A DNA stretch of 30,090 nt from an uncultured bacterium (lineage in GTDB: Bacteria > Muiribacteriota > CAYSPT01): the NCBI GenBank assembly GCA_964593455.1, contig CAZQHK010000042.1, forward strand, positions 1 through 30,090, read 5' to 3'. Made by a program: the position numbers and the translations under genes. Below are positions 23,344 through 26,168 of this stretch, piece by piece (position 1 is the stretch's first letter; each line of letters opens with the position of its first letter). The notes under the pieces were generated by a model, which worked only from the letters and a program-made list of their open reading frames with translations, was not told the origin of the DNA and searched no databases.

Positions 23344-24717
23344 ATGGATATAAAAAGGGTAACGCCTGTTTTTATTTTCATGGTTGTTATTTTTATCCTT
23401 GCTTCAGATACCCCCGGGTACGGGAGAGATAGTGCCGATGATTATTATCTGCGGGCTCTTGAACTGAATCGTGCCGGGGATCTCAAAGGGGCCCTGGAAG
23501 AATTGGAAGAAGCATACCGTCGCGATGACGATAATCCTAAGATTCAAAAAGCACTGTCGGTGGTAGCCAACAATCTGGCAGTGGCCCTGTCCGGTCGCGG
23601 TGAGTCGGAGGATGCTCTCAAATATTATAAGCGTGCTCTGGAAATCTTCCCGGACGACGTGGTCAGACAAAGCTATGCGAGGTGCCTGTTCTCCGCTAAA
23701 CGGCCTTACGACGCCATCAGGGTATTGGATGATCTAGTCGCTTCCGATAATCCCGACACCGAGCAGGCAGCCCGGTGGATTCTGGCCCAGATTCATTTCT
23801 CCCTACGGGATTTCGAACAAGCCGTGGTCGAGCTGGAAGAGATAATATACCAGAACGATAAAAACGCGGAAGTCCATTTTCTTCTGGCCCGCAGCTACGA
23901 GCAAACCGGCGAAAAACAGAAGGCAGCCGAGCATCTTAAACGGGTACAAGAGCTAACCGGAGACAGTAAGGTGCAGTCCTATGCGGAAGATCTACAGGGT
24001 CGCCTGGAACGGGAAAACACCATAGAAGAGGAATTCGAACAAGACTCGAGCCATCACTTTAAACTGGTGTTCGAGAGCGGTCGCCGGGATGATCTCATGG
24101 ACGAAATTATCGAGTATCTGGAAGAAGCCTATGACGATGTGGGACGTGAACTCCAGTTCTACCCGACCCGGGAGACAAAGGTTATCATTTACACCCCGAA
24201 ACAATTCGTGACCGTGACCCAGTTGCCCAGCTGGGTAGCGGGTGTTTACCAGGAGTGGATTATCCGTATCCCCATTCCTACCGGCGGTACTCGGGGCGAT
24301 AGTTTGAAAGACGTGGTGTTTCATGAGTACACCCATCTGCTGGTTCAGGCTCTGGCCGGTGGTAACTGTCCAGTGTGGCTCAACGAGGGGCTGGCGGTAA
24401 CCATGCAGCCGAATAGAACCGGCTTTGAAAAAATACACATTTTGCAGCAGGAGCTCAACAAGAAATCGCTGCCGGCCATCGATAAGCTCGATTCAAATTT
24501 TATCAAAGCTGACAGTCATAAACAAGCCATGATTGCCTACATCTCGGCCCGTTTTCTGATCAAGTTCATCGATGAAGAGTGGGGGCTGTACCGGGTCTCA
24601 AGGATGCTTGAAATGTTCAAGGGGAATATCGATACGAGCACAGTCCTTCAAGACGTTTTGGGTTTCGATCTCGAGCGTTTTGAAACAAGATGGCATGAAT
24701 TTCTCGAGGATCAGTGA
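23344..24717 (+). CDS. exported TPR-repeat protein with a C-terminal peptidase-MA-like (HExxH) domain
   Basis: Signal peptide. About 5 TPR units in the first 230 aa. VFHEYTHLLVQ…WLNEGLAV (HExxH with a downstream E) in the C-terminal half. Start at the second Met, preceded by a good RBS. Confidence 0.7.
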   Translation: MDIKRVTPVFIFMVVIFILASDTPGYGRDSADDYYLRALELNRAGDLKGALEELEEAYRRDDDNPKIQKALSVVANNLAVALSGRGESEDALKYYKRALEIFPDDVVRQSYARCLFSAKRPYDAIRVLDDLVASDNPDTEQAARWILAQIHFSLRDFEQAVVELEEIIYQNDKNAEVHFLLARSYEQTGEKQKAAEHLKRVQELTGDSKVQSYAEDLQGRLERENTIEEEFEQDSSHHFKLVFESGRRDDLMDEIIEYLEEAYDDVGRELQFYPTRETKVIIYTPKQFVTVTQLPSWVAGVYQEWIIRIPIPTGGTRGDSLKDVVFHEYTHLLVQALAGGNCPVWLNEGLAVTMQPNRTGFEKIHILQQELNKKSLPAIDKLDSNFIKADSHKQAMIAYISARFLIKFIDEEWGLYRVSRMLEMFKGNIDTSTVLQDVLGFDLERFETRWHEFLEDQ

Positions 24718-26168
24718 TGATGAAATGCGCTCTGGTGGTGACGGCAACCATGCTTGTAACGGTCGTTTCCGGTTGTTCGGGAGTAGATGGCGGAAATGTT
24801 TCCCATGATGAGATGAGAAAGTTCCAGGCCCAGCGGGAAAAGATGGTCGAGACGCAGATCATGGACCGCGGTGTGGAAAACGTGAGTGTCCTCAGGGCAA
24901 TGCTGAAAGTGCCCCGGCACCTCTTTATATCATCAATTCTGAAATGGCAGGCGTACGATGACTCTCCCCTGCCTATCGGCAATGACCAGACCATTTCACA
25001 GCCGTATATCGTGGCTTTTATGACCGAACAGCTCGATCCCGGACCCGGGGACAGAGTGCTTGAAATTGGTACTGGTTCGGGATATCAGGCGGCCGTTTTA
25101 GCGGAGATAGTCAAAGAAGTCTACACCATCGAGATCGTGGAACCGCTGGGGAAAGGAGCAGCGGAACTGTTAAAGAAACTCGGGTATGAGAATATCCATG
25201 TACGAATCGGGGACGGGTACCAGGGCTGGCCGGAAGCTGCCCCCTTCGACACCATTATTGTCACCTGCGCTCCGGATCACATCCCCCTACCGCTGGTAGA
25301 ACAGCTCAAGGTGGGAGGAAGGATGATTATTCCCGTGGGTGAGGAGTACGGTGTGCAGGAGCTTGTCCTGGTCCGGAAGACCGGTCTCGGCCTTAAACAG
25401 GAAGCTGTGTTGCCGGTCCGGTTTGTCCCCATGACCGGTAAAGGAGTCAAGGTTCCTGAAGAGTCGGCACCTGAAAACAACAAATCCTCGAAACAGGAGG
25501 AGGATGTTCTGGAGGAGGAATACGCAGGGCTTCGGAACCGGATGGTGAAGGAACAACTTATTGACCGGGGAATTAAAAACGAGCAGGTCCTGGCTTCCAT
25601 GGGAAAGGTACCGCGCCATCAGTTTGTGACCGGGGTTTTACGAAAAAAAGCGTACCAGGACTGCTCTCTTCCTACCGAGGAAGAACAGACAATTTCGACT
25701 CCCTACATCGTGGCTAGCATGTCGGAAAAACTACAGGTGGGTACGGGAGACCGGATACTGGAAGTCGGTACGGGTTCCGGATACCAGGCAGCGGTGCTGG
25801 CCGAGTTTGTCGATGAAGTGTACTCCATAGAGATAGTCGAGCCGCTTGGCCGTCAGGCGGAAGCGGTATTAAAAAATCTCGGATACACGAATGTCCATGT
25901 GCGTATCGGGGATGGGTACCAGGGCTGGCCGGAGGCGGCTCCTTTCGACGCCATTCTGGTTACCTGCGCTCCCGATCATATCCCGGATCAGTTGGTCAAA
26001 CAGCTCAAGTTTGGCGGTAAACTGCTCATACCGGTTGCCAATAAGGACGGCGGACAGGACCTGGTGTTTGTCAGGAAAACCGCCGGGGGAATGATCAAGG
26101 AAGCGGTGCTGCCGGTGCATTTTGACCCCATGACGGGAGACGGGGTAAAAGAAGGCTCCAAACAATGA
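24714..26168 (+). CDS. pcm: lipoprotein made of two tandem protein-L-isoaspartate O-methyltransferase (PIMT/Pcm) domains
   Basis: Lipobox VVSGC. Two complete PIMT units, each with TISQPY/TISTPY, the SAM motif LE(I/V)[28 protein letters not shown] and TCAPDHIP, joined by an acidic or polar linker. GTGA overlap with the upstream stop. Confidence 0.85.

Follow-up and report, generated by a model that had tools for sequence, protein, structure and literature searches.

An open reading frame (ORF) in contig CAZQHK010000042.1 (GenBank assembly GCA_964593455.1), from an uncultured bacterium of the Muiribacteriota, codes for a predicted lipoprotein in which two protein-L-isoaspartate O-methyltransferase (PIMT, or Pcm) domains follow each other in a single chain. 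The stretch of contig analysed here, referred to below as the window, comprises 30,090 nucleotides. PIMT is the textbook enzyme for the repair of ageing proteins, and work on it has dealt with a cytoplasmic enzyme; as judged from its sequence, the tandem PIMT lipoprotein is a new architecture within this known enzyme family. The reading that we favour, with reasonable though not strong confidence, is that the protein is exported by Sec, lipidated on Cys20 and tethered in the periplasm, where the first of its two flexibly linked domains (D1) would methylate isoaspartyl (isoAsp) residues and the second (D2) would bind S-adenosylmethionine (SAM) and either take other substrates or serve as an auxiliary module.

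Two PIMT domains behind a lipoprotein signal

The tandem PIMT gene lies on the + strand at positions 24717..26168, with its TGA stop at 26166-26168. The ATG start chosen by gene callers yields 483 aa, and an in-frame GTG at 24714 would yield 484 aa; an earlier first-pass annotation, made from the letters of the window alone, had placed the ORF at 24714-26168, which is correct for the GTG start. Residues are numbered here from ATG 24717. The two-domain assignment made in that annotation was confirmed by profile searches. The family PF01135 matches in two stretches, with 398.6 bits in total against a cut-off of 20.3, and the best of them covers positions 2-208 of the 210 in the profile. Two stretches are likewise matched by the NCBIfam models PRK00312 (473.8 bits, cut-off 188) and TIGR00080 (414.5 bits, cut-off 159). 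When solved PIMT structures were searched with phmmer, the enzymes of Vibrio cholerae (4l7v, E = 8e-50) and Escherichia coli (3lbf, E = 7e-49) were found.

D1 (aa 35-245; 24819..25451, + strand) is fully canonical by profile, motif and structure-model evidence. Motif search and alignment locate its catalytic-loop Ser94 in the sequence QTISQP (24987-25004, +); the 13 residues of motif I are at 25068-25106 (+) and motif II is at 25206-25250 (+). Its post-I segment reads YTIEIVE and its C-terminal motif RFVPMTG. D2 (aa 268-478; 25518..26150, + strand) is a divergent copy, with Ser327 in QTISTP (25686-25703, +; motif search and alignment), a motif I made of the same 13 residues as in D1 (25767-25805, +) and motif II at 25905-25949 (+). 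The domains are separated by an acidic, low-complexity linker of 22 residues (25452..25517, +), which is not conserved in the ortholog P0002 from a sister lineage (482 aa, 59% identical, tandem architecture kept).

Motif I, the post-I acidic residue, motif II and motif III, GG(RM/KL)(I/L)IPV, are kept in both domains, so that neither lacks SAM-binding residues. The Ser of the T-I-S-x-P loop is also kept in both (Ser94 and Ser327, aligned with E. coli Pcm 3lbf and relatives). PMC7565475, which cites the mutagenesis of Drosophila PIMT by Bennett et al. 2003, describes this residue (Ser60 in Drosophila/human numbering) as related to catalysis. The protein thus shares with canonical Pcm of E. coli (3lbf) and V. 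cholerae (4l7v) the motif I sequence GTGSGY, the post-I acidic residue, the motif II sequence GDG...APFD, the motif III sequence GG..IPV and the TIS.P Ser. It differs in that canonical Pcm is a cytoplasmic enzyme of a single domain and roughly 210 aa, whereas the window protein combines a lipoprotein signal with two domains, of which D2 is altered in the LPIG and RFVP sequences.

The divergence of D2 was measured on 79 alignment columns in which 111 single-domain relatives show at least 95% conservation. D1 agrees with all 79 and D2 departs from 10; the single-domain relatives depart from 0.92 on average and from 10 at most. The departures of D2 are P317S, I320T, G321E, Q328T, T336S, V347I, P425Q, R435K, G441A and V470D. 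Some of these fall in the substrate site. I320T and G321E change the LPIG loop just before the TIS Ser to LPTE, and V470D belongs to the C-terminal RFVP motif, which reads HFDP; D1 keeps both sequences. The claim of two complete PIMT domains therefore holds for the SAM pocket of each, but goes too far for the substrate site of D2.

The alignment behind an AlphaFold model comprised 58 sequences and was shallow across D2. The per-residue confidence (pLDDT) of the model is about 96-98 in D1 and 84-92 in D2, except for the loop 306-327, where it falls below 50. Linker residues 245-257 are also below 50, as expected of disorder, and the predicted template modelling score (pTM) of the whole chain is 0.54. 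Given the disordered linker and this score, the model gives no confident packing of D1 against D2, and we rejected a fixed D1-D2 pseudo-dimer.

The N-terminus carries a lipoprotein signal peptide (24717..24776, + strand) composed of the n-region MMK, a 14-residue h-region with a mean Kyte-Doolittle hydropathy of 2.46, and the lipobox VVSG-C, whose Cys20 is encoded at 24774-24776. It agrees with a PROSITE-type rule (PS51257-type: {DERK}(6)-[LIVMFWSTAG](2)-[LIVMFYSTAGCQ]-[AGS]-C, with Cys at 15-35 and K/R in the first 7 residues) in having Cys20, Lys3 within the first 7 residues and six uncharged positions before the box. The lipobox VVSGC noted in the first-pass annotation is thereby upheld. 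The hydrophobic core and lipobox are retained in P0002 (LFAGPLTGC) and in its 92% variant P0272 (LFAGPLSGC), both of which fall short of the strict pattern solely by a Pro at -4. The segment following the lipobox, GGNV(S/A)HDEMRK, is conserved in both as well. Export and lipidation of the tandem PIMT can be inferred from these features with good support.

Age of the duplication and other tandem PIMTs

D1 and D2, offset by 233 aa (699 nt), form a gap-free alignment of 211 aa whose BLOSUM62 score, 702, far exceeds what chance would give. The origin of the protein by intragenic duplication, as suggested in the first-pass annotation, is borne out by this alignment. The same annotation had described the halves as 75-85% identical in DNA, which proved too high. 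Over the whole repeat, identity is 64.8% in nucleotides and 63.5% in amino acids, and values of 78-82% are limited to the region of motif II. The example cited there is indeed 81.8% identical; its second coordinate was 3 nt out of register, and the correct pair is 25203-25290 and 25902-25989.

This local DNA similarity is explained by the amino-acid conservation of motif II. Among 129 identical residues with degenerate codons, 57 use the same codon in both domains, against 48.5 expected from the codon usage of the window (P = 0.07), and the largest local excess, in the motif II window, is small (15 against 10 expected). Because the same-codon count is near expectation, synonymous sites are essentially randomised and the duplication must be old. 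The codon-identity test gives no signal of gene conversion, which had been proposed to maintain the similarity, and we rejected this process as well as a recent duplication.

A neighbour-joining tree was constructed from 16 domains of tandem proteins and 40 single-domain relatives, with support counted out of 200. D1 of the window protein pairs with D1 of P0002 in 113/200 and D2 with D2 of P0002 in 100/200; the grouping of its own D1 and D2 was recovered in 9/200. This pairing of like with like indicates that the duplication predates the split from the sister lineage. The ratio of non-synonymous to synonymous substitution rates (dN/dS) between the window protein and P0002 is 0.14 for D1 and 0.17 for D2, with dS saturated. 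Between P0002 and P0272, for which dS is about 0.24, it is 0.18 for D1 and 0.10 for D2. Purifying selection acts on both domains, and the selective maintenance put forward at the first reading is supported, with dN/dS of about 0.1-0.2.

Tandem PIMTs are rare. A search of 1.84 billion cluster representatives returned 150 top matches that include P0002 and one other true tandem, P0219, and a search of 5.8 billion proteins added two small tandem lineages, P0003/4/6 and P0005/7/8. No tandem occurs among the best 80 GTDB loci of the matches listed. In the tree, D1 and D2 are monophyletic within P0003/4/6 (167/200) and within P0005/7/8 (189/200), and a single clade of all tandems was recovered in 0/200. 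Linker lengths, signal types and neighbouring genes differ between the tandem lineages. The lineage-specific monophyly of D1 and D2, together with these differences, points to at least three independent origins of tandem PIMTs; P0219 is a fourth example, seen outside the tree.

All these proteins have two PCMT domains per chain, one canonical and one divergent. In the other tandems the canonical domain has 4-7 departures from the 79 conserved columns and the divergent one 11-26; the divergent domain is D1, and its catalytic Ser is lost, being replaced by Phe in P0002, Tyr in P0003/4/6, Pro in P0005/7/8 and Thr in P0219. The window protein does not follow this pattern: its divergent domain is D2, and the Ser is kept in both. 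P0003/4/6 and P0005/7/8 further differ from it as products of independent duplications, with other linkers and other neighbours. In the sister lineage (P0002/P0272), purifying selection still acts on the Ser-less D1 (dN/dS 0.18).

A signal peptide or N-terminal anchor is present in P0003, P0004, P0005 and P0007. P0006 and P0008, as predicted, have no signal and may be N-terminally truncated. P0219 (452 aa, from an AT-rich organism), whose D1 reads QLTTKP in place of the TIS loop, has no predicted hydrophobic N-terminal extension, which suggests that tandem PIMTs may not all be exported; this record, too, may be truncated.

Relatives with predicted export and neighbouring genes

The first-pass annotation had called an extracytoplasmic tandem PIMT unusual. 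The rarity of the tandem form stands, but extracytoplasmic PIMTs turned out to be common in sequence space. Among the nearest 149 representatives of clusters at 50% identity (the query's own cluster left out), a hydrophobic N-terminal extension occurs in 112, of which 35 also show a lipobox-like motif. Among the best 80 species-genome loci of GTDB in the matches listed, the extension is found in 65/80 and a lipobox in 32/80. These counts come from a crude in-house heuristic, not from a trained predictor. Signal-bearing single-domain forms are carried by Geothrix fermentans DSM 14018 (L056), by a metagenome-assembled genome (MAG) of Akkermansia muciniphila (L008) and by many MAGs of Verrucomicrobiota, Planctomycetota, Acidobacteriota and Bacteroidota.

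Such single-domain exported PIMTs are 68-70% identical to D1, share all 79 conserved columns with it and have a similar hydrophobic extension, often with a lipobox. Unlike the window protein they have one domain, share no neighbourhood with the tandem locus and are annotated simply as PIMT; a search of the literature found no experimental work on them. When the 433 neighbouring ORFs of the best 80 GTDB loci listed were clustered, no family was present in more than 10 loci, and the top family had no NCBIfam match; a conserved operon partner of the exported single-domain PIMTs was rejected on these counts.

Twenty long relatives were scanned for fusion partners. Relatives with a single PCMT domain are fused to Peripla_BP_2 (P0167), Amidohydro_3 (P0175, 958 aa), an S33/S28-type hydrolase (P0252), a nitroreductase (P0151 and P0162), DJ-1/PfpI (P0174), HAD (P0227) and APS kinase (P0255). 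The fusion to a periplasmic-binding-protein domain is in line with export. Many long relatives have no detectable partner domain, and several of 400-600 aa have long stretches with no Pfam match. The partners are heterogeneous, some being unrelated domains of cytoplasmic type, and, as a functional clue, suggestive at best. Two loci of other tandem PIMTs also contain hydrolases. Translational coupling links the gene of P0004 to one for a signal-bearing Amidohydro_3 protein (L090:1878-3563 and L090:3560-5122). At the P0006 locus an exported lipoprotein resembling beta-aspartyl peptidase (L089:3283-4335; Asparaginase_2, 296 bits, below the equivalog cut-off) lies two genes away, with PmbA/TldD between. 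We consider this hydrolase theme around exported PIMTs a lead, not a finding.

Two further observations concern the family at large. The signal-bearing PIMT P0074 (312 aa) has an exact 38-aa repeat spanning motif I, due either to faulty assembly or to a partial duplication of very recent date. Several multi-chain PDB entries (8qby_t, 9g83, 9g9y, 9g9z and 9gae) contain a 217-aa chain 't' named protein-L-isoaspartate O-methyltransferase, a hint that some large complex includes a subunit of PIMT fold.

In the window, the tandem PIMT gene is preceded by a gene for a protein of 457 aa with tetratricopeptide repeats (TPR) and a Peptidase_MA_2 domain (23344..24717, + strand), which has a GGAGG Shine-Dalgarno sequence and an N-terminal signal or anchor, MDIKRVTPVFIFMVVIFILA. 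It matches PF13485 (Peptidase_MA_2; 58.3 bits, cut-off 32.4) and several TPR families. A gluzincin-type signature is formed by HEYTH (24322-24336, aa 327-331) and NEGLA (24382-24396, with Glu348), and on this profile match, the HExxH motif and the downstream Glu ligand the protein is predicted to be a gluzincin metallopeptidase. A promoter-like site of the sigma-70 type, TTGACA-17-TACAAT with a TG extension (23295..23323, + strand), has 11/12 consensus matches and is a consensus match only. An alternative TTG start at 23314 falls inside this site, so the true start of the gene is probably ATG 23344. Downstream of the PIMT gene lies ligA, identified by profile match as coding for an NAD-dependent DNA ligase of 677 aa (26165..28198, + strand).

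The stop and start codons of the three genes overlap: the TGA of the upstream gene overlaps the PIMT ATG in TGATG (24715-24719), and the PIMT stop overlaps the ligA ATG in ATGA (26165-26168). The translational coupling to both neighbours noted at the first reading is thereby supported. On the + strand no terminator-like site was found from the promoter-like site to the end of ligA, and the PIMT gene is predicted to be co-transcribed with the exported TPR-gluzincin peptidase gene and ligA.

The locus of P0002 has the same gene order as the window: YjbQ, TPR/Peptidase_MA_2, tandem PCMT, LigA, BPL_LplA_LipB and VIT/VWA. When the TPR/peptidase and LigA proteins were compared by tblastn with 90 loci, matches were found only in the query and in sister-lineage contigs. 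The nearest LigA sequences are two from the sister lineage (71-72% identity), followed by those of KSB1, Calditrichota and Latescibacterota (57-60%), and the source organism appears to represent a deep lineage. Two KSB1-like LigA homologs (59-60% identity) have RtcB/archease upstream, not PIMT, and one remote TPR-peptidase homolog with a readable context has no PCMT neighbour. Since only this lineage and its sister have the linkage, we rejected a general functional link of PIMT to the TPR/peptidase or to LigA and count the linkage as weak evidence that the genes work together.

The rest of the window contains housekeeping genes, including an RND (resistance-nodulation-division) efflux pair, which fits a diderm. 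A 219-aa ORF (28352-29011, - strand) has a collagen-like G-x-y run, GDKGDTGLQGLQGTKGDAGAKGDD. It is overlapped upstream by a 157-aa ORF (28900-29373, - strand) whose N-terminus, IIGCIVMINGCGGGGGG, resembles that of a lipoprotein; public gene calls give this ORF a weak CarboxypepD_reg match. A 639-aa ORF (16637-18556, + strand) matches no Pfam family at E <= 1e-5.

Proposed function and its alternatives

On the reading that we favour, Sec export and LspA processing in a diderm would place the lipidated Cys20 on the membrane, facing the periplasm. A tether of roughly 14 residues would hold two independently folding PIMT domains, with the disordered acidic linker between them. D1, the likely catalyst, would carry out the SAM-dependent methylation of the alpha-carboxyl of L-isoaspartyl residues in aged, long-lived envelope proteins; the methyl ester would collapse to a succinimide, which would hydrolyse partly back to normal Asp. 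D2 would probably bind SAM and act either on a different set of substrates or as an auxiliary binding or holding module. The tandem arrangement would go back to an old intragenic duplication, before the sister lineages split, and would have been kept by purifying selection, not gene conversion. We infer the catalytic activity of each domain, their substrates and an extracytoplasmic source of SAM.

Several points weigh against this proposal. We know of no periplasmic source or pool of SAM and of no exporter for it, and since Sec export delivers an unfolded protein, SAM cannot travel along with the enzyme. Full-text searches found no report of a bacterial exported or tandem PIMT, nor of a periplasmic SAM-dependent methyltransferase, an absence that is no proof. 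The altered LPIG and RFVP residues could mean that D2 is inactive; D2 is also the more weakly modelled domain, its loop 306-327 lying outside the confident part of the prediction. Finally, the export call comes from a pattern rule and conservation, not from a trained predictor.

The periplasmic methionine-sulfoxide repair system MsrPQ follows the same concept, the dedicated repair of damaged envelope proteins, with an unrelated fold and chemistry. MsrP solves its cofactor problem with electrons from the membrane partner MsrQ, whereas no comparable partner for SAM supply is evident for the tandem PIMT.

The SAM problem would be sidestepped if the tandem protein were a reader module that binds isoAsp-damaged envelope proteins, with SAM or S-adenosylhomocysteine at most structural, and hands them to the co-encoded TPR-gluzincin peptidase. 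The human protein PCMTD1 is a precedent: it is a PIMT-fold reader in a cullin-RING ligase that recognises isoAsp without methylating it (PMC12590147). The association of a PIMT fold with a degradative machine is a possible analogy for the coupling seen here, and the tandem protein would be a bacterial counterpart. PCMTD1 differs in being eukaryotic and cytosolic, in its SOCS box and in its lack of methyltransferase activity, while D1 has no sequence sign of inactivity. The upstream gene fits a reader in coding for an exported protein with an intact HEYTH...NEGLA signature, in being translationally coupled to the PIMT gene and in being kept beside the tandem PIMT in the sister lineage. So do the other exported PIMTs coupled or fused to hydrolases (Amidohydro_3 at L090 and in P0175, the S33/S28-type enzyme in P0252, the beta-aspartyl-peptidase-like lipoprotein near P0006), and the Ser-less D1 of other tandems, which in the sister lineage is under purifying selection. 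However, D1 of the window protein cannot be told from active PIMTs at any of the 79 conserved columns, every SAM-contacting motif among them, which is hard to explain without chemistry. A TPR/peptidase homolog occurs in 0/83 other loci (80 of them the best GTDB single-domain loci listed), the peptidase link is confined to one pair of lineages, with the remote homolog lacking a PCMT neighbour, and the fusion partners of relatives are heterogeneous (nitroreductase, DJ-1, HAD and APS kinase). We therefore consider a reader function unlikely, while taking it as the most serious of the alternatives.

The choice of start codon bears on the same problem, for a protein starting at Met33 would be a cytoplasmic tandem PIMT supplied with SAM, possibly existing beside the exported form (dual localisation). 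Met33 (HDE-M-RKFQ) is at the exact place where canonical cytoplasmic Pcm begins, it is conserved in P0002 and P0272, and the tandem P0219, possibly truncated as noted, is predicted without an extension. The start contexts, when compared, favour the full-length protein: a GAGGA Shine-Dalgarno sequence lies 6 nt before ATG 24717 and none is found upstream of Met33, whereas the neighbouring genes do use such sequences (GGAGG and GAAGG). The 1-nt overlap with the preceding stop codon likewise favours the upstream start. At the protein level, the lipobox and the residues from there to Met33 are conserved in the orthologs, and hydrophobic N-terminal extensions are the rule among the nearest relatives. 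Use of Met33, alone or in part, is accordingly improbable.

We give very little credence to a role in the tailoring of ribosomally synthesized and post-translationally modified peptides (RiPPs), in which a PIMT-like methyltransferase of the FxLD or ATP-grasp maturase type would help to make a succinimide or isoAsp in a specific precursor. The models TIGR04364 (FxLD system, E = 4.5e-83) and TIGR04188 (ATP-grasp maturase system, E = 6.1e-71) do match, but at 279.5 and 239.7 they stay below their curated cut-offs of 320 and 380, while the PIMT equivalogs score far above theirs. Annotation of parts of the window turned up no ATP-grasp, lanthipeptide synthetase or precursor-like gene, and RiPP methyltransferases of this kind are cytoplasmic; this identity was rejected.

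That two pcm genes were brought together by a collapsed or chimeric contig might be suspected from the metagenomic source and from the internal repeat of P0074, itself a possible artefact, but it is effectively refuted by independent assemblies: the gene is present on 7 contigs, the 4 retrieved (from ENA, NCBI and Logan) come from 4 different samples and differ by at most 1 nt, P0002 (8 contigs) and P0272 (24 further contigs) share the architecture and synteny, the reading frame is unbroken and the linker sequence is unique.

A lipoprotein PIMT that retains all SAM-binding residues under purifying selection, together with dozens of exported single-domain relatives from cultured and uncultured phyla, calls for an explanation. 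Either SAM-dependent chemistry takes place in the periplasm, or evolution has turned the PIMT fold into an isoAsp reader for the quality control of envelope proteins. More tentatively, and with appreciable doubt, we suggest that the whole clade, which is phylogenetically broad, truly works outside the cytoplasm, that SAM reaches the periplasm through an unrecognised exporter or leak, that isoAsp repair operates there beside MsrPQ, and that tandem forms pair a catalytic domain with a substrate-holding one. The repeated, independent appearance of tandems with one canonical and one degenerate domain amounts to a natural experiment in the pairing of enzyme and pseudoenzyme. Cultured carriers of the exported single-domain form, such as G. 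fermentans and A. muciniphila, make the question experimentally tractable. The main value of the present observation is as a pointer to a large, experimentally unexplored clade of exported PIMTs and to a recurrent canonical-plus-divergent tandem design. If extracytoplasmic PIMT activity is real, many diderm bacteria would need a so far unrecognised delivery of SAM to the periplasm.

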